Position numbers and translations under genes: made by a program. Positions 11,066 to 21,169 of a stretch of DNA of 36,614 nucleotides are shown here, piece after piece. The first letter of the stretch is position 1. Each line of letters opens with the position of its first letter. The notes beneath the pieces are model-generated. The model had not been told where the DNA came from. It ran no database searches and worked only from the letters and a program-made list of their open reading frames with translations. Origin of the DNA: a virus; the IMG/VR virus record IMGVR_UViG_3300042804_000010. One strand, 5' to 3'.

Positions 11066-11265
11066 CGCTCCAGGTTGTTAATGTTTTTAAATTCTGATAT
11101 ATTATAGTTAGATGTTTTTTCTTGATCAGCTGTTCCTGCAGCTGGTCTTTTTATTTCTCTATACATTTCTTTGATATCCTTCCATAATTCCGGGCCAGCT
11201 TTAAATATAATGAATAACCAGCCAATGAACATGAATAATCTTGCTATAAAGTCTAAGTTTTGCAT
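11056..11265 (-). CDS. Small membrane protein (69 aa)
   Basis: N-terminal hydrophobic helix FIARLFMFIGWLFIIF. Confidence 0.4.
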   Translation of the reverse strand: MQNLDFIARLFMFIGWLFIIFKAGPELWKDIKEMYREIKRPAAGTADQEKTSNYNISEFKNINNLERWK

Positions 11266-11552
11266 TATTTCACTCTCCTAACTTTCTTGAATGGTTTCTT
11301 CTCATTAACATTATTTCCATACCACCAGACGAAAAATGTTTCTTTCGGAATCCTCCAGCCAAAACCTTTGATTTTCTTAGCCCCTGGAATGTCTCCTCGA
11401 TTGAGTGCTTCATAAGTTCTGGCCTGCGAAGTATTCATAATTTCCATAATGTCTGCCGGCTTGAGTGCCGAAGGATAATCGTCTATCTTTTCGTTGATTC
11501 GTTCGTCTAATACTGATTTGACTGCTGATTGAACATTAATTGTTAAGCTCAT
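11265..11552 (-). CDS. Helix-turn-helix DNA-binding protein (excisionase/AlpA-type HTH)
   Basis: 95-aa ORF with ...PADIMEIMNTSQARTYEALNRGDIPGAKKIKGFGWRIPKETF..., a winged-helix pattern. Confidence 0.5.
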   Translation of the reverse strand: MSLTINVQSAVKSVLDERINEKIDDYPSALKPADIMEIMNTSQARTYEALNRGDIPGAKKIKGFGWRIPKETFFVWWYGNNVNEKKPFKKVRRVK

Positions 11553-12369: not shown

Positions 12370-12582
12370 TTAGCTGTACTCTATTTCTAAAAAAAGACGA
12401 CTGATCGGAATTTGCAACTCATCAGAAACTTTCCTGAGCGTTTCAATAGATGGGTTACTATCTCCTCTTTCTATCGCTGCTATAGTTGAATGTGCTAACC
12501 CTATCCGGCGTGCCAACTCTCGCTGGCTCCATTCTAAATCTTCTCTATATTTTTTTATAGCCAGCCCGATGTGTTTATCCAT
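12370..12582 (-). CDS. Cro-like XRE-family HTH regulator
   Basis: 70-aa ORF ...WSQRELARRIGLAHSTIAAIERGDSNPSIETLRKV...; divergent from the cI-like gene. Confidence 0.75.
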   Translation of the reverse strand: MDKHIGLAIKKYREDLEWSQRELARRIGLAHSTIAAIERGDSNPSIETLRKVSDELQIPISRLFLEIEYS

Positions 12583-12650
12583 TTTATCACCTCCAAAAAT
12601 CTCGGAATAATCTCTAAAAATTCTCGAAAAATAGCTCTAACTTGTTTATC

Positions 12651-12679
12651 ATTGTATTTTATAACTGCACAAAAATCAA
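12651..12679 (-). promoter_or_regulatory. Candidate leftward early promoter (TTGATT-17-TACAAT on minus strand)
   Basis: Plus-strand aatcaa at 12674-12679 and attgta at 12651-12656 are the reverse complements of the -35 and -10 boxes, 17 bp apart, upstream of the cro-like gene. Confidence 0.45.
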
Positions 12680-12773
12680 GCAAAATATTTCCTTTCTAAA
12701 GCATTTAAGACTTATCAGATTAAATTAACTAATTATTATTAACTTATACTGCTTTATACTCGTACACTCATAC

Positions 12774-12802
12774 TTTACAAAATAATACATTAATATTATA
12801 AT
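12774..12802 (+). promoter_or_regulatory. Candidate repressor promoter (TTTACA-17-TATAAT)
   Basis: -35 at 12774-12779, -10 at 12797-12802, 17-bp spacer; about 45 bp upstream of the cI-like ATG (12846), which is preceded by RBS AAAGGGGGGA. Confidence 0.5.
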
Positions 12803-12845
12803 ATAAGTGTACAGTATTTAAAACACAAAAAAAGGGGGGATTTAG

Positions 12846-13490
12846 ATGACATTAGGTGAAAAGATTAGAGAACTAAGGACAAAAAAGGGCTATTCTCTTC
12901 GAAAATTGTCGAAAATAGTTGGTTCTGCTTCTCACTCCTATATTGCCGCTATAGAACGTGGCGAAAATAACCCATCATTAAACATATTGTCAGATATCGC
13001 AAATGTTCTTGGAGTATCAACAGCTTATTTATTGGACATTTATGATAAAGAAAAGTCTGGAAATGAAAAGTTTAAGATTGATGAACATTCAGGGGAGATT
13101 TCAAAAGAGGAGATGATTAGTGTGCCGATTGTCGGAGATGTAGCAGCAGGTGAACCAATACTCGCAGACGAACATATAGAAGGATATAGACAAATGCCCG
13201 CAAAAGACATCAATGGGGAATGTTTTTTGCTCAAAATTAAAGGCGATAGCATGATCAATGCAGGGATTCATGAAAACGATTTGGTATTAATCAGACAGCA
13301 GGCAAAAGTTGAGACCGGAGATATTGCAGCTGTAATGATTGATAATGAAAATGCGACATTAAAAAGAGTTTATTTTCATGACAATTCAGTTTTGCTGCAG
13401 TCTGAAAACTTGAAATATAAGCCGATGAATATTAATAATGAAAGAGTTAAAATTATTGGTAAAGCAATAGAAGTTATTCACAAACTATAA
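12846..13490 (+). CDS. CI-like repressor (N-terminal XRE HTH plus C-terminal S24/LexA-like peptidase domain)
   Basis: N-terminus LRKLSKIVGSASHSYIAAIERGENNPSLNIL; C-terminus ...PIVGDVAAGEPILA...KGDSMINAGI...KRVY with Ser/Lys dyad spacing typical of autocleaving repressors. Confidence 0.8.
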   Translation: MTLGEKIRELRTKKGYSLRKLSKIVGSASHSYIAAIERGENNPSLNILSDIANVLGVSTAYLLDIYDKEKSGNEKFKIDEHSGEISKEEMISVPIVGDVAAGEPILADEHIEGYRQMPAKDINGECFLLKIKGDSMINAGIHENDLVLIRQQAKVETGDIAAVMIDNENATLKRVYFHDNSVLLQSENLKYKPMNINNERVKIIGKAIEVIHKL

Positions 13491-13502: not shown

Positions 13503-14192
13503 ATGAAGAAAATTTTAATTGTTTTTTTAATTTTATTTATTTTATCTAGCTCAGCAACTGCGGCTAGAAACTGGGAGAAGCAATATACATTAGATAATTT
13601 ATTTATTGATTCTACAGCAAACGGCGAACTTTGGGAAACAATAGATAAAGCTGACCGAATAAATACAGCTTTAGTTTACAATAAAGTAAAAATAGGCCAG
13701 CCGCTATTAATTTCTTATTCAAGGTATGGTGCAAATGCAGAAATCAGCGAGTATTACAAAAATGAAGAATTTATAAAAGAAAACCAGCGATTTTATCCTA
13801 CGGGTTCATATTTGAAAATGGTGTACATGGGGCAAGACGCACAAAATAATATTAGATTAAAGGTTTATGATCATTATTATGGCAACGAAAAGAAACTTTA
13901 TAAAAGAATCAATTCGCTAATTGAAGAAGATTATCCCTCAGAGGAAGATAAAGAGGGAATGCTTGAGAGAACCGGCATTGAAAGTGAAAAAAAGTTGAAA
14001 GAGGTTATAGTTAAGATAATCACTTTAGATAGTGATTATTATTATTTTGACTTAGACACCGATTCAGCCCCTTATGATGATTTTCAATTATCTTCTAATA
14101 AAATTTTAAAATTTTGGGATGAATCAATACCACCGATCAAGATTAAAACAAATATGATAGACTCAACAATAAAAGTTGAAATAGTCAACTAG
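13503..14192 (+). CDS. Secreted protein with signal peptide (candidate lysogenic-conversion/exclusion factor)
   Basis: N-terminus MKKILIVFLILFILSSSATAA is a signal-peptide-like segment; sits between the repressor and integrase; RBS AGGAGGAG. Confidence 0.55.
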   Translation: MKKILIVFLILFILSSSATAARNWEKQYTLDNLFIDSTANGELWETIDKADRINTALVYNKVKIGQPLLISYSRYGANAEISEYYKNEEFIKENQRFYPTGSYLKMVYMGQDAQNNIRLKVYDHYYGNEKKLYKRINSLIEEDYPSEEDKEGMLERTGIESEKKLKEVIVKIITLDSDYYYFDLDTDSAPYDDFQLSSNKILKFWDESIPPIKIKTNMIDSTIKVEIVN

Positions 14193-14209
14193 AAAGGAAG
14201 GTTAAATTT

Positions 14210-14476
14210 ATGACAGATGTAATTATAGCGATACTTTGGTTTGTCGCAGGAGGGAATTGGTTATTATCAGCCGTAGTTTTTTATTTAGCTTTCAATGGAA
14301 TGCATTCAATGGCCCTTGCGGGTTCTAATTACGGCTTATTTGGAGCCTTTCAAGGCATAGCTCTTGGGGTTGCGCTTATTATAGTCGGCACTATTTTTGG
14401 AGCTGTGGCAGTTTTAATTTCAGAAGTTCGTGATTCAAAACAATTATTACAAAATATAATCAAAGAAGGTGATTAA
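14210..14476 (+). CDS. Small integral membrane protein (2-3 TM helices)
   Basis: 88 aa, Gly/Ala-rich hydrophobic segments (IIAILWFVAGGNWLLSAVVFYLAF; GIALGVALIIVGTIFGAVAVLI); stop abuts the integrase start. Confidence 0.5.
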   Translation: MTDVIIAILWFVAGGNWLLSAVVFYLAFNGMHSMALAGSNYGLFGAFQGIALGVALIIVGTIFGAVAVLISEVRDSKQLLQNIIKEGD

Positions 14477-15622
14477 ATGCCTCATATTGAAAAAACTGCA
14501 AATGGAAAGTATAAAGCTGTCATTGAAGTTGGCGCCGGCGCCAGGCGAAAAAGAAGAACAAAAACATTCGAAAGAAAAAAAGATGCAAAAAGCTGGCAAG
14601 CTAATATGTTAGTTGATCAAGAAAAAGGCAGATATGTTTCTTCCGCATCATTAACTGTCGGTGATCATATGCTTGACTGGCTGGATAACGAGAAGAAACC
14701 GCACATCGCCACAACTACTTATGATAATTACAAAAACCGTATAAAAACTTATATTATACCCGAAATAGGATATATTCCATTGCAGGAACTGGAGCCCTTC
14801 CATATTAGCCGATTTATGGGCTATTTAAGAAAGAATGGAAGTGTCAGGAATGATGGCGGCCTGTCTGAAAATACTCTCAAGAAAATATATGTAGTGCTTA
14901 ATTCAGCGATGGAAAAGGCAGTCCAGTGGCGGTTAATAAAATATAACCCAGTCCAGGCGATTGAATCACCACAACCGAAAAAGAAAGAAGCTAAGTCAAT
15001 GAGCTTTGAGGAAGTTCAAAAATTACTTGATTCAGTTAACGATAAATTTATGCACACATTTTTGAGTTTTGCTGTCCTTACCGGAATGAGAAAAAGTGAA
15101 ATGCTTGGCCTAGAGTGGTCAGAAGTTGATTTAGAGAATGAAACTGTCGAAGTAAAAAAGCGATTAGTTGTTAATCAAAATAGTGATCAGGGAATTGAGC
15201 ATGAAGAAGCGACAAAGCGAGAAGCCAGCAGAAGAGTGATTGCGATTCCTTCGAAACTGGCAAAAATATTGAAAAATTATAAGGTCCATCAAACAGAATT
15301 AAGGCTGCAGCTGGCGGATGAATATAATGATGAAAAGCAATTTGTTTTCTGTAAGTCTGACGGGAATCCTTATTATCCGTCAACAATTACTAGAAATGCA
15401 AAAAAGGCCATACTCAGAGCTGATTTAAGCTCCGAATACAGCCTTCATACATTGCGCCATACATTCGCTACCTTGCAACTTAAAACCGGGACAGATGCCA
15501 AAACTATACAAGAAATGCTCGGTCATGGGAATATCTCCACTACTATGGATATATACTCTCATGTTGATATTGACATGCAGAAAGAAGCCGCAAAGAAATT
15601 AGAAAATGAGATTGTTATTTAG
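14477..15622 (+). CDS. int: Tyrosine integrase (site-specific recombinase)
   Basis: C-terminal catalytic pattern ...HTLRHTFATLQL...LGHGNISTTMDIYSHV (R...HxxR...Y) and N-terminal SAM-like domain. Confidence 0.85.
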   Translation: MPHIEKTANGKYKAVIEVGAGARRKRRTKTFERKKDAKSWQANMLVDQEKGRYVSSASLTVGDHMLDWLDNEKKPHIATTTYDNYKNRIKTYIIPEIGYIPLQELEPFHISRFMGYLRKNGSVRNDGGLSENTLKKIYVVLNSAMEKAVQWRLIKYNPVQAIESPQPKKKEAKSMSFEEVQKLLDSVNDKFMHTFLSFAVLTGMRKSEMLGLEWSEVDLENETVEVKKRLVVNQNSDQGIEHEEATKREASRRVIAIPSKLAKILKNYKVHQTELRLQLADEYNDEKQFVFCKSDGNPYYPSTITRNAKKAILRADLSSEYSLHTLRHTFATLQLKTGTDAKTIQEMLGHGNISTTMDIYSHVDIDMQKEAAKKLENEIVI

Positions 15623-15646
15623 ACCCCTATTCGGGGTCTTTTTTAT
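15622..15646 (+). terminator. Rho-independent terminator after int
   Basis: gacccc-tattc-ggggtc hairpin immediately followed by ttttttt, overlapping the int stop codon. Confidence 0.7.
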
Positions 15647-15678
15647 TTATTATTTTTTAAAAAAGATTGATAAAACTC

Positions 15679-15707
15679 TTGACAGTACCACGCTATCGTG
15701 GTATAAT
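15679..15707 (+). promoter_or_regulatory. Near-consensus sigma70-type promoter (TTGACA-17-TATAAT) with a palindrome in the spacer
   Basis: TTGACA at 15679-15684, TATAAT at 15702-15707; the 17-bp spacer contains ccacg-ctat-cgtgg (5-bp inverted arms); followed by RBS AAAGGAGGA and ATG 15754. Confidence 0.65.
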
Positions 15708-15753
15708 TAAGTTGTAATAAAGAAAGGGAACAAAAATCAAAGGAGGAAAGATA

Positions 15754-16083
15754 ATGAAAAAACAAAAAAGAGTTGTTGGTGAAGTTTATATAGCAATAGG
15801 CAGAAATACACAGAAAGTTGTAGCGGTCGGGGAAAAGAATACTTATGAAAATAAAGAAAAATTAAAAGAGGCTGGTTACAAGTGGGATGCAAGCCAAAAA
15901 GAATGGATAAAAGAAGTTAAAATTGATATGACAGATATAGACCCAAAAAGTAAAGAAGACAATTTAAAAGTAGCAAAAAGAGCAGTTGAAATTTTAAGAG
16001 AACTACAAAAACCAGAATTTATTAACTTAATTGCCGATGAGCAAAGAACAAAAAAGATTATAGAATTTGCTGACAATCACTAA
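15754..16083 (+). CDS. Hypothetical protein (109 aa), first gene of post-int cassette
   Basis: ORF with strong RBS directly downstream of the consensus promoter; no recognisable family. Confidence 0.5.
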   Translation: MKKQKRVVGEVYIAIGRNTQKVVAVGEKNTYENKEKLKEAGYKWDASQKEWIKEVKIDMTDIDPKSKEDNLKVAKRAVEILRELQKPEFINLIADEQRTKKIIEFADNH

Positions 16084-16132
16084 TAAATTTTAGCTCTGCC
16101 GGTGGCTTAATAACCGGCAAAGGAGGATAAAA

Positions 16133-16507
16133 ATGATTATCAAATTAATTTTAGAACAATTCAAAAGCATTGAGCGGAATTATCAAGGTTCAGAAAATTA
16201 TCATCAAAATGAGATTGTGAAGGTTGTTGACCCAGATAGTGAATTTTATGGAGCAACAGGAAAATACAAAGGGTTAAAAGAAAGAAAAATACCACAAGAT
16301 ATTTACGAAGTTGAAATTATATCTTACCTCTGGAAAGTTATGACTTTCAAAGAGGCTTCAGAAAAATATGATGTGGCAGTATCAACATTAAGACATAGAG
16401 CCTCAGACGGAAGATTCGAAGATGGTGATATTAGGAAGTCGGGCAAAACTTGGTTAGTCACAAAATCAGCAATGGACCGGATATACGGAGGTGCAAAAAA
16501 TGACTGA
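16133..16507 (+). CDS. HTH-containing protein (possible excisionase-like DNA-binding domain)
   Basis: RBS AAAGGAGGA; C-terminal ...MTFKEASEKYDVAVSTLRHRASDGRFEDGDIRKSGKTWLV resembles excisionase/MerR-type HTH; lies between int and the candidate attP. Confidence 0.45.
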   Translation: MIIKLILEQFKSIERNYQGSENYHQNEIVKVVDPDSEFYGATGKYKGLKERKIPQDIYEVEIISYLWKVMTFKEASEKYDVAVSTLRHRASDGRFEDGDIRKSGKTWLVTKSAMDRIYGGAKND

Positions 16508-16721
16508 GTTCGAAAAAGCGGCTAAAGATTTACCTGTAGAAGTTAGATATGACCCCATTGACCAAAAGACAGTTGAAGATTTAGTTTTTGCAGCAGAGCT
16601 AGAATTAGATATAGTAGAAGGCAACGAAATACATTACAGAGATATGGACGGCAGAACAAAAAGAGGGGTAAAAATCAGGCTTAGAAATTTCATAGAGGAA
16701 TATAAAGACAACTCAGTTTAG
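16491..16721 (+). CDS. Hypothetical small acidic protein (76 aa)
   Basis: ORF overlapping the previous gene by 17 nt (translational coupling). Confidence 0.45.
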   Translation: MQKMTEFEKAAKDLPVEVRYDPIDQKTVEDLVFAAELELDIVEGNEIHYRDMDGRTKRGVKIRLRNFIEEYKDNSV

Positions 16722-16746
16722 CAGCTAGATTTTCCTTTTCTAAAAC

Positions 16747-16769
16747 TTTTCGGCACTAGCTCGGCACTT
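16747..16769. repeat. Direct repeat copy 1 (ttttcggcactagctcggcactt) flanking the tRNA-like core
   Basis: Shares TTTT-GGCAC-n4-TCGGCACTT with 17018-17040; contains two CGGCACT units 11 bp apart. Confidence 0.5.
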
Positions 16770-16788
16770 TAGCCGGGCTTTTATTTTT
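16760..16788 (+). terminator. Candidate terminator for the plus-strand cassette
   Basis: ctcggc-acttta-gccggg stem (one G-U pair) followed by cttttattttt. Confidence 0.35.
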
Positions 16789-16789
16789 G

Positions 16790-16825
16790 CAAATAAAAAA
16801 AGGACAACCACGAAGGCTGTCCTGT
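16790..16825 (-). terminator. Rho-independent terminator (minus strand) downstream of the tRNA-like fragment
   Basis: Hairpin aggacaacc/ggctgtcct (9-bp stem, one mismatch, 5-nt loop) at 16801-16823, followed on the minus strand by tttttttattt. Confidence 0.6.
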
Positions 16826-16837
16826 TAGTATTCTTAA

Positions 16838-16887
16838 TGGTGCGCCCGACAGGATTCGAACCTGTGGCCTACGGATTAGAAGTCCGT
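16838..16887 (-). other. 3' half of a tRNA-Arg(UCU)-like sequence (anticodon arm, variable loop, T-arm, acceptor 3' strand, CCA); candidate attP core
   Basis: Minus-strand read ACGGA-CTTCTAA-TCCGT AGGCC ACAGG-TTCGAAT-CCTGT CGGGCGC A CCA; the upstream 5' part has only weak acceptor complementarity (GCGCAAG) and no D-arm, so it is not a complete tRNA. Confidence 0.6.
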
Positions 16888-16939
16888 AAGAGGTGAAATC
16901 TTGCGCTTTCTTATGTTTTCTTTTGTTGCGACATTTAGT

Positions 16940-16968
16940 AGTATATCAACACTTTTTGGAGTTGTCAA
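16940..16968 (-). promoter_or_regulatory. Near-consensus promoter on minus strand (TTGACA-17-TATACT) directed into the tRNA-like fragment
   Basis: Plus-strand tgtcaa at 16963-16968 and agtata at 16940-16945 are reverse complements of the -35 and -10 boxes with a 17-bp spacer. Confidence 0.45.
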
Positions 16969-17017
16969 GACTTTTTGAAAAAATATTTATTCTGATGTTT
17001 TCTTAAATTTTGGCACG

Positions 17018-17040
17018 AACTCGGCACTTCCTACATTATA
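17018..17040. repeat. Direct repeat copy 2 (ttttggcacgaactcggcacttc)
   Basis: About 19 of 22 positions identical to copy 1, with an exact TCGGCACTT 9-mer; the two copies bracket the promoter, tRNA fragment and terminator. Confidence 0.5.
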
Positions 17041-17187
17041 TATAGTGATTAATTGTGCTTGTTATATTCTTTAGCAGCATCAATCAGCTTTTGCTCAAAG
17101 TCTAACTTTTTCTTACCGAGCAATTCTCTACTGGTACGCGGCCTGTATTCAGCTTTTAGATTTTCTCCAAACTCATCATAATCGAAT

Positions 17188-18237: not shown

Positions 18238-19332
18238 CTATATGCTTTTTAATTTTAGCCGGTCGCCTAAATCCAATTGCTCCAGTATATGATCATCTAG
18301 TTTGTTTATCACTGACATTTTTAAATTATAACTATCGCAATGTTTAATTATTCCCAAGTAGGAATTAACACTGGCATTAATATCCTCGATATCCACCTTC
18401 CCTTCAAAATATTTTTTATTAAGATATTTAAATCGCTTTTTCATTTTCTTTTTAGTACTTTTCCTCAATTTGCTATAACTCGGATATAGAACATATCCGC
18501 AAAAATCTATTCCTTCATTCACATGTCCAACAGTAGTTTTATTATTAAGCTGCAGCTGGAGATAATCTTCTAAAAATATTTCTATTTCCTGTCTGATTGT
18601 ATGAAGCTTCTTTTTATCTTTTCCCAAAAGTACAAAGTCATCCATATACCGGACATAGTATTTTACTTTCAAGGTGTGCTTTACAAACTTATCTAAAAAA
18701 TCAAGATAAATATTTGCAAAAAGCTGGCTCATTAAGTTGCCGATTGGTGTGCCAATCCCTTTAACTTTTTTATTTTCAAAGAAGTGATCACCTAACTGGA
18801 TACCAAACTCACCATCTTCACTTTTGATTATCTGCCAGATTAATTCCAATGTATCTCTGCAGCTAATTTTCCTTTTTATTAACTGAAATAATCTTTTATG
18901 AACTATCCTGTAAAAATATTTTGAAACGTCTGCTTTTAAAAAATATGTTTTTCCGGGCTTTCGGTCCATTATCCTTAACTTGTCCTGTAATTGATATGCA
19001 GTGAAATGAGTACCCTTTCCTCTGCGACAAGCCCCGCTATATCTGTAAAATGCCTTATCAAATATCGGGTAAAGCTTTCGATATATGCTCCACTGGACCA
19101 CTCTGTCTTTAAAAGGCAAAGCCATGATCAGTCTTTTCTTTGGCTCATAGACATAAAACTGCCTGTATTTTCCCTGTTCATATGTTTTCCACATTAATTC
19201 ATTCTGTATCTCAATTAAATTTCTCTCTAAATTATAATTAAATTTCAGCACTTCCGGTTTGTATCTTTTCCTCTTTTGAGCTTTTTGAGTTGCTATTTCT
19301 AAATTATGATAATCAGTAATTTTCTCAAACAA
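18238..19332 (-). CDS. Diversity-generating retroelement reverse transcriptase
   Basis: RT motifs FYVYEPKKRLIMALPFKDRVVQ, GTHFTAY, IGTPIGNLMSQLFANIYL (DGR-type SQ in place of the usual QGxxxSP), YVRYMDDFVLLG (YxDD); about 360 aa, as for Bordetella phage Brt; apparent TTG start at 19332. Confidence 0.9.
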   Translation of the reverse strand: MFEKITDYHNLEIATQKAQKRKRYKPEVLKFNYNLERNLIEIQNELMWKTYEQGKYRQFYVYEPKKRLIMALPFKDRVVQWSIYRKLYPIFDKAFYRYSGACRRGKGTHFTAYQLQDKLRIMDRKPGKTYFLKADVSKYFYRIVHKRLFQLIKRKISCRDTLELIWQIIKSEDGEFGIQLGDHFFENKKVKGIGTPIGNLMSQLFANIYLDFLDKFVKHTLKVKYYVRYMDDFVLLGKDKKKLHTIRQEIEIFLEDYLQLQLNNKTTVGHVNEGIDFCGYVLYPSYSKLRKSTKKKMKKRFKYLNKKYFEGKVDIEDINASVNSYLGIIKHCDSYNLKMSVINKLDDHILEQLDLGDRLKLKSI

Positions 19333-19586
19333 ATTTTTGACTGTCTTAGGAATAAATAATCACCACTCTCTATATATTAGGTGAAATATTCAAGCCCGCT
19401 CAAATGAGAACGGGCTCATAACTAATCGTGACAGCTTTCGATATTTCGCTACTTGCTATCTAATTAGTAATTCATATGTTTTCCTGGAGGGACCTCAAAA
19501 TGTATCTCAGGAAGGACTAAAGGCCTGTTCATCTTTTTGAACACTGCAGCAGAGGCCTTGACCCCATACTGTCTGATAAATTTGTA

Positions 19587-19703
19587 GATGAGCACAGGCG
19601 CCACGCACGCCAATGTTAGTGTTCACGTTCCACGGGTTATTGTTCGAGTTGACCGTCCGAGCACCGCAGATGCTACCATTGTTGAAGTTGCCACCGGCGA
19701 GGA
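19587..19703 (-). repeat. DGR template repeat (TR), 117 bp
   Basis: 102 of 117 positions identical to VR (20143-20259); all 15 differences are at TR adenines on the coding strand; carries 11 AAY codons in the VR frame. Confidence 0.9.
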
Positions 19704-19727
19704 CCAACGCCCTTAGCCCTATAAAAT

Positions 19728-20081
19728 TTATTTTTTATTTTCACAAGACTTAATCCAGCCACCCAGAAGGCGGCCAATTTCGTCTATTTTTTTGACTACA
19801 ATTTCATGTTTTCTTATAGATAAAAAATGCATATCTTTAGCAAGTCTAATTTTAACTTTTAGCTTTTTAAGTTCATCATCTATCCGGTTTAAAAATCTTA
19901 TCTTACTTCCTCGAGCTTCATTTGCATCTATTATCAATTCCATAATTCTATCTAATTTATTTTTGATTTTTGTACACATTGCAAACTTTTCTCTTTTTGG
20001 AAAATTATCAATTACTGGGTAAAAATAAAGAGTAAAGTCATAATGTTTTCTAAATATCACGAGATCATCTGTGTCTGCCAA
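19728..20081 (-). CDS. avd: DGR accessory variability determinant (Avd)
   Basis: 117-aa basic helical protein located between the target gene and TR, as in canonical DGRs; TTG start preceded by AAGGAG with a 7-nt spacer. Confidence 0.75.
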   Translation of the reverse strand: MADTDDLVIFRKHYDFTLYFYPVIDNFPKREKFAMCTKIKNKLDRIMELIIDANEARGSKIRFLNRIDDELKKLKVKIRLAKDMHFLSIRKHEIVVKKIDEIGRLLGGWIKSCENKK

Positions 20082-20131
20082 ATCATCACTCCTTCAAGTT
20101 CTAAACCTAACCAAAAACCATTATCAGATTA

Positions 20132-21169
20132 TCAGGCACTCTGATGAGCACAGGCGCCACGCACGCCAACGCTAGTGTTCACGTCCCACGGGCGAAAGTC
20201 CGAGCTGACCGTCCGAGCACCGCAGAGGCCACCACTGCTGAAGCCGCCACCGGCGAGGAGGCCAATAATAGCCACATTATTTTGCATGTAAGCTTCACCA
20301 TGCTGATAACCGCTGTCTTTACCTGCATTAAGCACATCATACCAACTGAATGAAGTTGAGCCAGTATTTCTATAAGTATACTCGTCTAATCTTTCCCAAA
20401 GGTTACCAGCGCAATCTACAAGGTTATAGCAAGAAACTGCTTGTTCTACAGTTCCAGTTGAAGTTCGACCTGAATTACTTGAACTAGACCAAGCGGCATT
20501 ATTATCATTTTCGTGGCCTTCTGGGCTACCATAGGCAGCCATTAACCATTCCTGCCTGGTTAATTTTCTTTTGTTGACATTTGCAAGACCCCTAATGAAA
20601 TCATAATCATTATAACCCTCAGTTCCTGAGACCGGGGTCGCATTGTATTCACTCACAAGTTCAGTTTCCGGCCAGGTTCCGCTGCCTTCACTTGCAATAT
20701 ATATATCAGCCCAAAAGTTTGATACCTTGACCATTCCAGTAGGGTCACAGGCAGGTCTGTAGTTCAATGACCAGACTGAGTTTGGCAGTATATTAACTGC
20801 AATTGAGGCTGTATCATCATATCTTTGAGCGTTTGTTCTGATGCGGCCATAATGAAAACCACCAATTTTTCTGCTATTATTTTCTGTATACCCGTCTGGA
20901 TAAGTAGAGTTGATAGAAATAACAAAATCGGGCTCTGCATCAGCTGATGGCTGCAAAGCATATATATAATAGTTTTCGCCAAGCGTGAAACTTACAAAAC
21001 TGCCGTCGCTATCAGCTTCAGTCAAAATAGTATCAGTTTCTTTTTTGAGATTCTGTCTATCAATTCTCAAAGCTAATGGAGGTACTGTAACTTCATCAGC
21101 TGCACTCTTTTCAATATGGCCTTTGAAATTGTAGAATGAAGGTGAATCAGCTCCAACAAAAGTTAACAT
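20132..21169 (-). CDS. DGR target protein: distal tail/receptor-binding protein with C-terminal C-type-lectin/FGE-like fold carrying the VR
   Basis: C-terminal ...SCYNLVDCAGNLWERLDEY...LLAGGGFSSGGLCGARTVSSDFRPWDVNTSVGVRGACAHQSA; VR occupies the last about 39 codons; last gene of the tail module. Confidence 0.85.
   Translation of the reverse strand: MLTFVGADSPSFYNFKGHIEKSAADEVTVPPLALRIDRQNLKKETDTILTEADSDGSFVSFTLGENYYIYALQPSADAEPDFVISINSTYPDGYTENNSRKIGGFHYGRIRTNAQRYDDTASIAVNILPNSVWSLNYRPACDPTGMVKVSNFWADIYIASEGSGTWPETELVSEYNATPVSGTEGYNDYDFIRGLANVNKRKLTRQEWLMAAYGSPEGHENDNNAAWSSSSNSGRTSTGTVEQAVSCYNLVDCAGNLWERLDEYTYRNTGSTSFSWYDVLNAGKDSGYQHGEAYMQNNVAIIGLLAGGGFSSGGLCGARTVSSDFRPWDVNTSVGVRGACAHQSA
20143..20259 (-). 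repeat. DGR variable repeat (VR), 117 bp, at the 3' end of the target gene
   Basis: Aligns to TR 19587-19703; the coding-strand 3' end is a GC-rich invariant segment ggcgtgcgtggcgcctgtgctcatc (IMH-like). Confidence 0.9.

Follow-up and report, generated by a model that had tools for sequence, protein, structure and literature searches.

The type II toxin-antitoxin systems HigBA, MqsRA, HicAB and GraTA are toxin-first, and their antitoxins carry a C-terminal DNA-binding domain. DhiT/DhiA, a pair of DUF4160 and DUF2442 proteins, is another validated toxin-first type II system, and its complex represses its own promoter (PMC8198452). An inverted repeat within the core promoter is documented both for type II antitoxins and for Aca repressors in a paper that also mentions HigA2 and GraA (PMC9410906). 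Here, we describe a cassette of three genes (open reading frames ORF1, ORF2 and ORF3) at positions 15679–16721 of a viral DNA stretch of 36,614 nucleotides, IMG/VR record IMGVR_UViG_3300042804_000010, which is referred to below as the window. The second gene encodes a winged helix of the HTH_59 family and the promoter of the cassette holds a perfect palindrome. Based on the comparison of related loci, we see an even chance that the whole is a self-repressed accessory operon in which ORF1 and ORF2 form a toxin-antitoxin-like pair, and not an excision module.

The window is a temperate siphovirus-type phage of Halanaerobium type in its circular (attP) form; we recognize this form because the lysis genes adjoin the att core on the side away from the cassette. 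The order of elements is the integrase gene, a terminator, the promoter with its three genes, a second terminator and the tRNA-Arg attP core. The parts of the cassette are as follows.

15621–15647, plus strand: intrinsic terminator with a 7-bp stem (5 GC pairs), a 5-nt loop and a T-run; it ends the unit of cI, lipoprotein, membrane protein and integrase genes
15679–15707, plus strand: sigma-70 promoter, with TTGACA (15679–15684), a 17-nt spacer, TATAAT (15702–15707) and TG at 15699–15700
15686–15703: proposed dyad operator, TACCACG-CTAT-CGTGGTA, 18 bp, a perfect 7-4-7 palindrome that occupies the spacer and extends into the first two bases of the -10 element
15708–15753, plus strand: leader, carrying the ribosome-binding site GGAGG (15742–15746)
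15754–16083, plus strand: ORF1, 109 aa, basic (pI 9.2)
16094–16125, plus strand: stem-loop between ORF1 and ORF2, pairing with part of the ORF2 ribosome-binding site (-15.7 kcal/mol, z -2.7)
16133–16507, plus strand: ORF2, 124 aa
16133–16327, plus strand: N-terminal half of ORF2 (aa 1–65), variable and always swapped together with gene 1; proposed partner-binding (neutralising) domain
16328–16507, plus strand: C-terminal HTH_59 winged helix of ORF2 (aa 66–122) and stop codon; proposed operator-binding autorepressor domain
16500–16721, plus strand: ORF3, 73 aa, acidic (pI 4.7); the list of open reading frames has 16491–16721 with a GTG start, 76 aa
16758–16789, plus strand: intrinsic terminator with an 8-bp stem (6 GC pairs) followed by a T-run; it closes the cassette and overlaps the P-arm GGCAC repeat

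The original prediction, made from the letters of the sequence, had placed the cassette between int and attP, and that is where it lies, between the tyrosine integrase gene (14477–15622, rightward; Phage_integrase, 9.5e-31) and the tRNA-Arg 3′ half (16829–16880). The promoter, described there as near-perfect, is in fact perfect (12/12, with an upstream TG), and the operator-like palindrome is longer than had been noticed; its 18-bp 7-4-7 form behaves as expected of an operator. The three genes are real, each with a good ribosome-binding site, and the lengths of 109 and 124 aa stand; the third product has 73 aa and not 76. ORF3 almost certainly starts at ATG 16500, because GGAGG lies 8 nt upstream, the start overlaps the ORF2 stop (ATGACTGA) and its homologues have 70–73 aa. 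Through the ATGACTGA overlap ORF3 is predicted to be translationally coupled to ORF2. Compared with relatives near synonymous saturation, dN/dS was 0.06 for ORF1 and 0.07 for both ORF2 and ORF3, which indicates strong purifying selection on all three.

The promoter is the only TTGACA-N16-18-TATAAT on either strand of the window, in which first-order Markov simulations give about 0.01 such promoters. Among the related loci (L numbers), which are largely short metagenomic contigs, it is kept in L009, L013, L027, L028 and L029. The terminator at 15621–15647 insulates the cassette on the upstream side, and its hairpin also precedes the cassette in L009, L013 and L029; the closing terminator is kept in L009 and L013. 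We found no second copy of the conserved leader or of the promoter elsewhere in the window, and no Rfam family in the leader or in the spacer between ORF1 and ORF2.

Palindromes of the 7-4-7 kind are common as such (5 in the window against 4 expected, the other four AT-only), so that the significance of the dyad comes from its position and conservation and not from palindromy alone. Allowing one mismatch, we still find a single CCACG-N4-CGTGG in the window, where 0.09 copies are expected. A dyad occupying a spacer of the optimal length, 17 bp, is expected to mediate repression by occlusion, whereas activation of the MerR type needs spacers of 19–20 bp. The cI repressor of the phage was also considered as the controller of the cassette and rejected, as the cI/cro intergenic region (12583–12845) holds no copy of the dyad.

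A recognized helix-turn-helix (HTH) was found in ORF2 alone, in agreement with the original reading of the middle gene. Residues 66–122 match Pfam HTH_59 (PF20038) with 64.8 bits against a cut-off of 27 (E 7e-18), and the gathering threshold is also passed by the relatives in L013, L009, L015, L034, L032 and L109. The same domain matches the "excisionase" family phrog_2655 (3e-15). The PADLOC match to "mad1" reflects generic HTH similarity only. Remote homology and structure prediction, suggested earlier as a check, were informative for this part of the cassette: in the AlphaFold model of ORF2 the HTH_59 domain has a pLDDT of 81–90, whereas the N-terminal half stays below 50 and is as unusable as the model of ORF1. 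According to Foldseek, residues 66–121 are predicted to fold like BldC, the N-terminal domains of MerR proteins, Tn916 Xis, RdfS and Pukovnik Xis. The probability for the three Xis proteins is 0.96–0.97 with weak E-values (0.15–0.3), and BldC and the MerR N-domains score equally.

At the amino acid level the HTH domain is about 90–92% conserved, with dN/dS of 0.04–0.10 at a dS of 0.8–1.3, near saturation. As it is conserved despite nearly saturated synonymous sites, the domain is held by selection and not by recent exchange. A narrow alignment of Halanaerobium HTH domains found no match in IMG/VR, one locus in a genome scan and three loci in a metagenome scan, and word-indexed protein searches returned only near-identical homologues of ORF1, ORF2 and ORF3.

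The dyad and the HTH_59 domain go together. Across the window and 29 further loci, CACG-N4-CGTG is confined to promoters of HTH_59 cassettes, namely those of the window, L009, L013 and L015 (two copies). L015 is a distant Clostridium-type contig whose two copies lie at the -35 element and spacer and at +1; the related Clostridium phage CWou-2020a has two further copies. These Clostridium cassettes have the HTH_59 domain alone in common with the window cassette, at about 33% identity. The closer relatives show matched changes on the two sides. The HTH variant STLRHRASDG..SGKTW is paired with the arm CGTGGTA (window, L009, L013 and L029), and the variant STLRNRAADG..SGNTW with TACAACG-CATT-CGTTGTA, in which both arms are changed symmetrically (L027/L028, partially L008). 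The arm change tracks the HTH variant and not the cargo, since both variants are found in cassettes of type B (L009 versus L027) and of type C (L013 versus L008), two cargo types that are described below.

Two scans of IMG/VR extended this link. In the forward direction we scanned for TTGACA-N5-ACG-N4-CGT-N2-TATAAT, with AGC/GCT in place of ACG/CGT as the control pattern. The dyad pattern returned 103 loci with 58 distinct 29-mers, among them 12 with perfect 7-nt arms and 13 with one mismatch; the control returned 31 loci and 13 distinct 29-mers, none perfect and one with a single mismatch. A gene for HTH_59 was present at 12 of the loci found with the dyad pattern (directly downstream in 11 and directly upstream in L099) and at no control locus. 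In the reverse direction 67 loci were collected by HTH_59 protein similarity alone, with a sub-family alignment, and 65 of these had at least 400 nt of upstream sequence. The promoter with its dyad in the same register was found on the same strand, 355–594 nt upstream, in 43 of the 65, while dyad promoters downstream or on the opposite strand were found in none (0/65 each). Upstream of the HTH_59 gene of Geobacillus phage E2 we saw no comparable dyad; this stretch is apparently unannotated coding sequence and is uninformative for the operator model.

Thus, the HTH_59 domain probably binds the dyad and represses its own promoter, a conclusion in which we have good confidence. It should be noted that operator and HTH lie about 0.9 kb apart on one DNA, and their co-occurrence could partly reflect shared ancestry.

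Additionally, perfect TA-NN-ACG-N4-CGT-NN-TA spacer dyads are found in consensus promoters of many IMG/VR loci with no HTH_59 gene nearby according to the narrow HMM (L030, L041, L044, L052-L054, L059, L061, L067, L079, L083, L084, L091, L096, L100, L101, L110, L117, L123 and L130). Examples are TATAACG-TATA-CGTTATA and TACTACG-CTAG-CGTAGTA, and L079 has the exact arms of the window (TACCACG..CGTGGTA). The downstream genes are diverse: L067 encodes a 244-aa protein containing HTH_17, and L101 shares the motif "GSEKQVAWAE.IR" with L015.

These results bear on the alternative raised in the original prediction, that the HTH protein is the excisionase. ORF2 would then be the Xis of the adjacent Int, perhaps repressing itself like P2 Cox and P4 Vis, and ORF1 an accessory DNA-bending or DNA-binding protein. 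The phrog_2655 match and the predicted Xis fold fit this explanation, as does the place of the gene next to int and attP; in L003, a Halanaerobium metagenome-assembled genome (MAG), the HTH gene is the last prophage gene before tRNA-Leu. A probable nucleic-acid-binding role of ORF1 would fit as well. We nevertheless consider an excision module improbable, and likewise a dual role of ORF2 as repressor and directionality factor of the P2 Cox kind. The motif linked to HTH_59 is a promoter dyad and not a set of direct repeats in the att arms, and no copy of it, even with up to one mismatch, is found in 16722–17100 or elsewhere. Prophages at tRNA-Arg and at tRNA-Leu both use this HTH (86% identical). 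Relatives also lie far from any large integrase gene: the cassette of L004-6 follows a PAPS-reductase gene, that of CWou-2020a comes after the lysis genes, and IMG/VR loci directly precede terminase genes. CWou-2020a is a circular phage with ParM, and its single recombinase gene, of 200 aa, is at another place. The HTH_59 gene of Geobacillus and Parageobacillus phages follows ArpU near the packaging genes. The Geobacillus phages use serine integrases; the integrase of NIIg3.2 is a serine recombinase, and the authors of that phage name the HTH_59 protein a putative regulator. A promoter of consensus strength in front of xis would destabilise the lysogen. The name "excisionase" itself comes from similarity annotation (PHROG, RefSeq), and the GenBank record of Geobacillus E2 says "putative regulatory protein". 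Neither do all three products of the cassette match ordinary excision proteins. Finally, a canonical Xis-like gene is present elsewhere in the window:

11265–11552, minus strand: Xis candidate, 95 aa, HTH_17 (E 8.4e-6; 26.4 bits against a cut-off of 27), the third early lytic gene after cro and an AntA-type antirepressor

The cargo of the cassette differs among related loci, and homologous phages do carry different genes at this place (L009, L013, L029), as the original prediction had proposed to check. The window, L009, L013 and L029 have the C-terminus of Int, the terminator, the promoter and the leader in common; in L007/L008 and L027/L028 the promoter and leader and the HTH ends are conserved, and the upstream gene is outside the contig view. 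Three types can be distinguished by their first gene.

Type A (window, L004-6): the 109-aa ORF1 as gene 1
Type B (L009, L026-L029): an unrelated 155-aa gene 1, also ending in a DUF5710-like motif
Type C (L007/8, L013): an unrelated gene 1 of 119–121 aa

Each type of gene 1 is tied to its own, unrelated N-terminal half of gene 2, of which Halanaerobium-type phages have at least three versions, and the C-terminal HTH stays nearly constant. The exchangeable block thus begins at the conserved leader and ends midway through gene 2. Its left edge is the leader, whose last 40 nt at the 3′ end (15722–15760) show about 95% identity ahead of three first genes unrelated to each other (L007/8, L009). Only the window (73 aa), L009 (an unrelated 45 aa) and L026 have a third gene, and L007/L008 have an extra membrane-anchored protein of 215 aa after the HTH gene. 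The junction of integrase gene and attP was initially called a typical accessory hotspot, and this description fits: three unrelated versions of gene 1 and the N-terminal half of gene 2, with zero or one third gene, follow the same Int C-terminus, terminator, promoter and leader.

Some of the contigs require comment. Adapter ends (Illumina/Nextera, beginning CTGTCTCTTATACACATCT and AGATCGGAAGAGCACACGTCTGAAC) are present in L007 (1–16 and 1690–1764) and L015 (1–45 and 1465–1498) and are not biological. In L004-6, where the cassette adjoins the PAPS-reductase gene, a second promoter family (CTTGACAAGTGCAAG...TATACT with a conserved leader and no CACG dyad) flanks the type A cassette on both sides (L004 700–770 and 1590–1660); it was also seen in L010 (606–632). 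In L027 a unit of promoter, leader and tRNA-Arg 3′ half (990–1376) lies downstream of the cassette in the orientation opposite to window 16722–16968, and the cassette can therefore lie on either side of the att core.

The joint swapping of gene 1 and the N-terminal half of gene 2 would be explained by pairing of the toxin-antitoxin type, as seen with DUF4160 and a DUF2442-HTH_59 fusion. The latter pair was found on the same promoter and HTH_59 arrangement (hereafter, the chassis) in 23–26 of the 67 IMG/VR loci. A further 26 loci have one or two tiny membrane peptides followed by a stand-alone HTH_59 protein, and the rest carry assorted genes of no known family. Judging from the sequence, ORF1 and ORF2 also have the hallmarks of toxin-antitoxin loci: small, adjacent and apparently co-transcribed genes, a palindrome in the promoter, and a second protein that seems to combine a partner-specific domain with a DNA-binding one. 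A toxin-antitoxin-like partner pair is the best single hypothesis for the cargo, and we rate it slightly short of an even chance; it is followed by an operon of the acr-aca type, a plain conversion or defence moron and, in last place, an excision module. Of the functions originally offered, addiction has the best comparative support; lysogenic-conversion, defence or anti-defence cargo is possible but less probable.

The proposed effector, ORF1, holds a DUF5710-like module of about 45 residues (residues ~17–64) followed by a helical tail. The module has the pattern G-x-TY-x2-KE-x-LK-x2-G-x-W-D-x3-K-x-W, and the match to Pfam DUF5710 (E 0.0016, 18.5 bits) is below the gathering cut-off of 26.5. 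An exhaustive phmmer search with ORF1 found the module in 20 other proteins at E<=1e-3; 5 of the 10 matches checked as whole proteins are at or above the DUF5710 gathering threshold (P0019, P0020, P0025 and P0028 clearly, P0026 weakly). It recurs, commonly as tandem copies, in proteins that also have SprT-like, RNase_T, helicase and SAP domains, and is therefore probably nucleic-acid-associated. ORF1 also matches the C-terminal region of the NF006615 exonuclease family (8.5e-6). Apart from this, the exhaustive HMMER search gave domain-level relatives only and no annotated family, a sequence search of PDB gave no match, and Foldseek hits to the predicted structure (mean pLDDT 55) were noise. 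A full-length homologue, P0024 (~44% identical), heads an operon in L020, behind a terminator and a TTGACA-17-TATAAT promoter whose spacer holds a palindrome; downstream in the same operon is a small protein that we judged by eye, from its sequence alone, to be ribbon-helix-helix-like.

The stem-loop between ORF1 and ORF2 shows a compensatory change in L004, from GCCGGT/ACCGGC to GCTGGT/ACCAGC, and L013 has an unrelated hairpin at the same site. A conserved hairpin that would mask the ribosome-binding site of ORF2 suggests a tuned ratio of ORF1 to ORF2.

An operon of the acr-aca type must be weighed against this pairing. ORF1, ORF3 and perhaps the N-terminal domain of ORF2 would then inhibit host immunity in an initial burst, which the HTH would shut down. 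The architecture described for such operons is the same in several respects: consensus -35 and -10 elements, an inverted repeat in the core promoter, an HTH gene after small variable genes, and Acr-Aca fusions (PMC9410906). The cargo here is likewise highly variable at a fixed position, and both ORF3 (pI 4.7) and the first genes of types B and C (pI ~5.3) are small and acidic. The homologues of ORF3 are early-operon genes in other phages, and the Clostridium cassettes lie just after the lysis genes, as Listeria acr loci also do. On the other hand, ORF1 is basic and its module probably binds DNA. The co-swapping of gene 1 with the N-terminal half of the regulator is left unexplained. Moreover, the best-characterised cargo of the chassis is the DUF4160/DUF2442 pair and the other common cargo consists of tiny membrane peptides, neither of which resembles a known anti-defence protein. 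We regard this explanation as unlikely.

No family in Pfam, NCBIfam, PHROGs or PADLOC matched ORF3 itself. Its homologues, at 77% identity, belong to early operons of other phages (L001, L010), where they stand directly after a Cro-like HTH gene and before Bro-N. At the cassette position the gene is missing from L013 and L003, and L009 has an unrelated 45-aa ORF instead. ORF3 is most likely an optional add-on.

A lower probability still is given to a plain lysogenic-conversion or defence moron, in which ORF1, ORF3 or both would benefit the lysogen and ORF2 would be only a regulator with no partner. The cassette does have its own promoter and terminators between conserved genes, and it lies at the prophage end next to probable exclusion genes (13503–14192 and 14210–14476). 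Cargo of this sort is also known on the chassis, given the added membrane-anchored 215-aa protein in L007/L008 and the common stand-alone HTH_59 regulators with membrane-peptide cargo. However, PADLOC detects no defence protein in the cassette, the products, all of them small, have no enzymatic or membrane domains, and neither the covariation of gene 1 with the N-terminal half nor the DUF2442-HTH_59 fusions are accounted for.

The cassette is an independent transcription unit (a "moron") of terminator, promoter, genes and terminator, probably controlled by its own product. The following reading takes ORF1 and ORF2 as a toxin-antitoxin-like pair. As its sequence suggests, the promoter at 15679–15707 would be fired by host sigma-70 RNA polymerase and require no phage factor. 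The winged helix of ORF2 would then bind TACCACG-N4-CGTGGTA and occlude the polymerase, as the comparative data support, giving a burst on entry into the cell and low, self-limiting expression later, in the lysogen. ORF1 and the variable N-terminal half of ORF2 would be matched interacting partners in a toxin-first type II layout. In this arrangement ORF1 would be a basic effector with a DUF5710-like, probably nucleic-acid-binding module, and ORF2 both its neutraliser, through the N-terminal domain, and the operator-binding repressor, through the C-terminal one. Were ORF2 lost or inactivated, the promoter would be derepressed and ORF1 set free, and as a result the prophage would be stabilised or a competing infection aborted. 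ORF3 would be an optional, translationally coupled passenger whose family elsewhere follows Cro-like repressors.

Several points weigh against this reading. For ORF1, the N-terminal half of ORF2 and ORF3, the Pfam, NCBIfam, PHROGs and PADLOC libraries gave no match to any known family of toxins, antitoxins, defence or anti-defence proteins; for the N-terminal half there was no family match at all. The DUF5710-like module is no known toxin fold, and the ORF1 model, with a pLDDT of 55, is uninterpretable. The support for the proposed binding, repression and toxicity is comparative. The L004-6 loci carry the ORF1/ORF2 pair (91% and 83–84% identical) behind a promoter whose spacer has no dyad, so that autorepression through the dyad is not universal. 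Many HTH_59 proteins stand alone (66–74 aa) and follow tiny membrane peptides, so the chassis is also used for cargo that is not neutralisable through an N-terminal domain. Finally, the block-wise swapping of gene 1 and the N-terminal half could reflect only the positions of recombination breakpoints.

A broader proposal is possible, if doubtful: that HTH_59 and the spacer dyad (TA-NN-ACG-N4-CGT-NN-TA) form an autoregulatory chassis that is widespread and portable among Firmicute phages and has so far gone undescribed, and that ORF1 and the N-terminal domain of ORF2 are a new toxin-antitoxin or effector-immunity family with a DUF5710-like DNA-binding effector. There is essentially no literature on Pfam HTH_59, a full-text search having found a single paper that names it, and databases label its members "excisionase". 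The evidence points instead to an operator embedded in the promoter and to an autorepressor, both reused in Halanaerobium, Clostridium and gut-phage lineages whose cargo differs widely. If this is true, a common mis-annotation would be corrected, and the chassis would be a guilt-by-association handle for new effector families, as aca genes have been for anti-CRISPRs. Its sequence signature would help to locate self-regulated accessory modules such as toxin-antitoxin pairs, membrane peptides and other effectors. ORF1 and the N-terminal domain of ORF2 would be a new candidate pair of effector and neutraliser, and the junction of int and attP would hold a stabilisation or conflict module, with the real Xis candidate at 11265–11552.

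The rest of the phage was surveyed as the setting of the cassette. The host is probably Halanaerobium, because one ORF2 homologue sits in a Halanaerobium MAG. A nucleotide search with 14400–17100 against 50,697 phage records matched only the tRNA-Arg fragment, and thus revealed no close sequenced phage. The lysis, diversity-generating retroelement (DGR), tail and head genes are on the minus strand, beyond the att core, and the DGR, at 18238–21169, is complete. Its template and variable repeats differ at 15 positions, all of them (15/15) template-repeat adenines. The other features of the window are listed below.

12370–12582, minus strand: cro-like gene, from which the early genes run leftward
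12846–13490, rightward: cI-like S24 repressor
13503–14192: protein with a lipoprotein signal (229 aa), between cI and int
14210–14476: multi-span membrane protein (88 aa), between cI and int
16829–16880, minus strand: attP core, the 3′ half of tRNA-Arg(UCU), 52 nt; it matches annotated tRNA-Arg genes of phage records and is not part of the operon
18238–19332, minus strand: DGR reverse transcriptase (RVT_1, 1.6e-21)
19587–19703, minus strand: DGR template repeat
19728–20081, minus strand: DGR bAvd (5e-28)
20143–20259, minus strand: DGR variable repeat, at the 3′ end of a 345-aa gene (20132–21169)

The pair of genes at 13503–14476, in the lysogenic operon, plausibly serves superinfection exclusion; neither product matches a family.

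At the att core the Rfam tRNA model matches 16841–16906 with 32.5 bits against a cut-off of 29, and ARAGORN calls no tRNA. The tRNA-like fold comprises an acceptor stem of 4 bp, an anticodon arm (UCU) and a T-arm, and the D-arm is missing. A near-consensus promoter on the minus strand (TTGACA-17-TATACT with TG, 16968–16940) reads into this element, with a terminator at 16823–16801. The unit of promoter, leader and core is kept in L013 and L027; it is possible that it yields a functional RNA or serves transcription out of the integrated prophage. Direct repeats GGCAC-N6-GGCAC flank the core (16748–16769 and 17008–17029; fuller form TTTYGGCAC-N5-TCGGCACTT), and their presence on both arms indicates that they are probably arm-type Int sites. 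The same repeats occur beside tRNA-Leu in the prophage of the Halanaerobium MAG (L003 298–320) and in L009 (1282–1300); L027 has different repeats there (ATCCTGCAC, twice).

Compared with known systems, ORF2 resembles the MerR-family regulators in a winged-helix fold related to that of their N-terminal domain and in a dyad between the -35 and -10 elements. MerR promoters have over-long spacers of 19–20 bp and are activated by untwisting of the DNA, whereas here the spacer has the optimal 17 bp, binding should repress, and there is no coiled-coil or effector-binding domain. With BldC and the Xis class (Tn916 Xis, RdfS, Pukovnik Xis) it shares a small winged-helix fold and a place by int and attP. 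Their binding sites are head-to-tail direct repeats located in att arms or promoters; the candidate site here is a promoter dyad that is absent from attP, and HTH_59 is widespread away from integrases. Like Hendrix-type phage morons, the cassette has its own promoter and terminators, lies between int and attP and varies in content, but it adds a proposed dedicated autorepressor and a conserved promoter-leader/HTH chassis for the exchange of cargo.

The acr-aca operons (Aca1-Aca10) share with it a strong promoter, an inverted repeat in its core, a conserved HTH after small variable genes and effector-HTH fusions (PMC9410906). That paper does not mention an Aca of the excisionase or MerR type, and HTH_59 is, as far as we checked, no described Aca family; moreover, no Acr homologue was identified in the general family libraries searched and the N-terminal half of the regulator covaries with gene 1. 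With HigBA, MqsRA, HicAB and GraTA the cassette has in common the gene order, the modular (putative) antitoxin and the palindromic promoter operator. It differs from them in that the DNA-binding domain is a MerR/Xis-type winged helix and not an XRE or ribbon-helix-helix domain, in the lack of an RNase-type toxin fold and in an operator that lies wholly in the 17-bp spacer.

DhiT/DhiA of Dickeya dadantii (PMC8198452) likewise consists of two small co-transcribed genes with the effector first. ORF1 and the N-terminal half of ORF2 have no detectable similarity to DUF4160 and DUF2442, the window adds the coupled ORF3, and the Dickeya DhiA has no HTH_59. In phages, however, DUF4160 with DUF2442-HTH_59 joins a partner-specific N-terminal domain to the same HTH_59 C-terminal domain, behind a dyad of the same class (TCACG-N4-CGTGA) in the same register. 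This pair is the closest documented analogue of the layout in the window.

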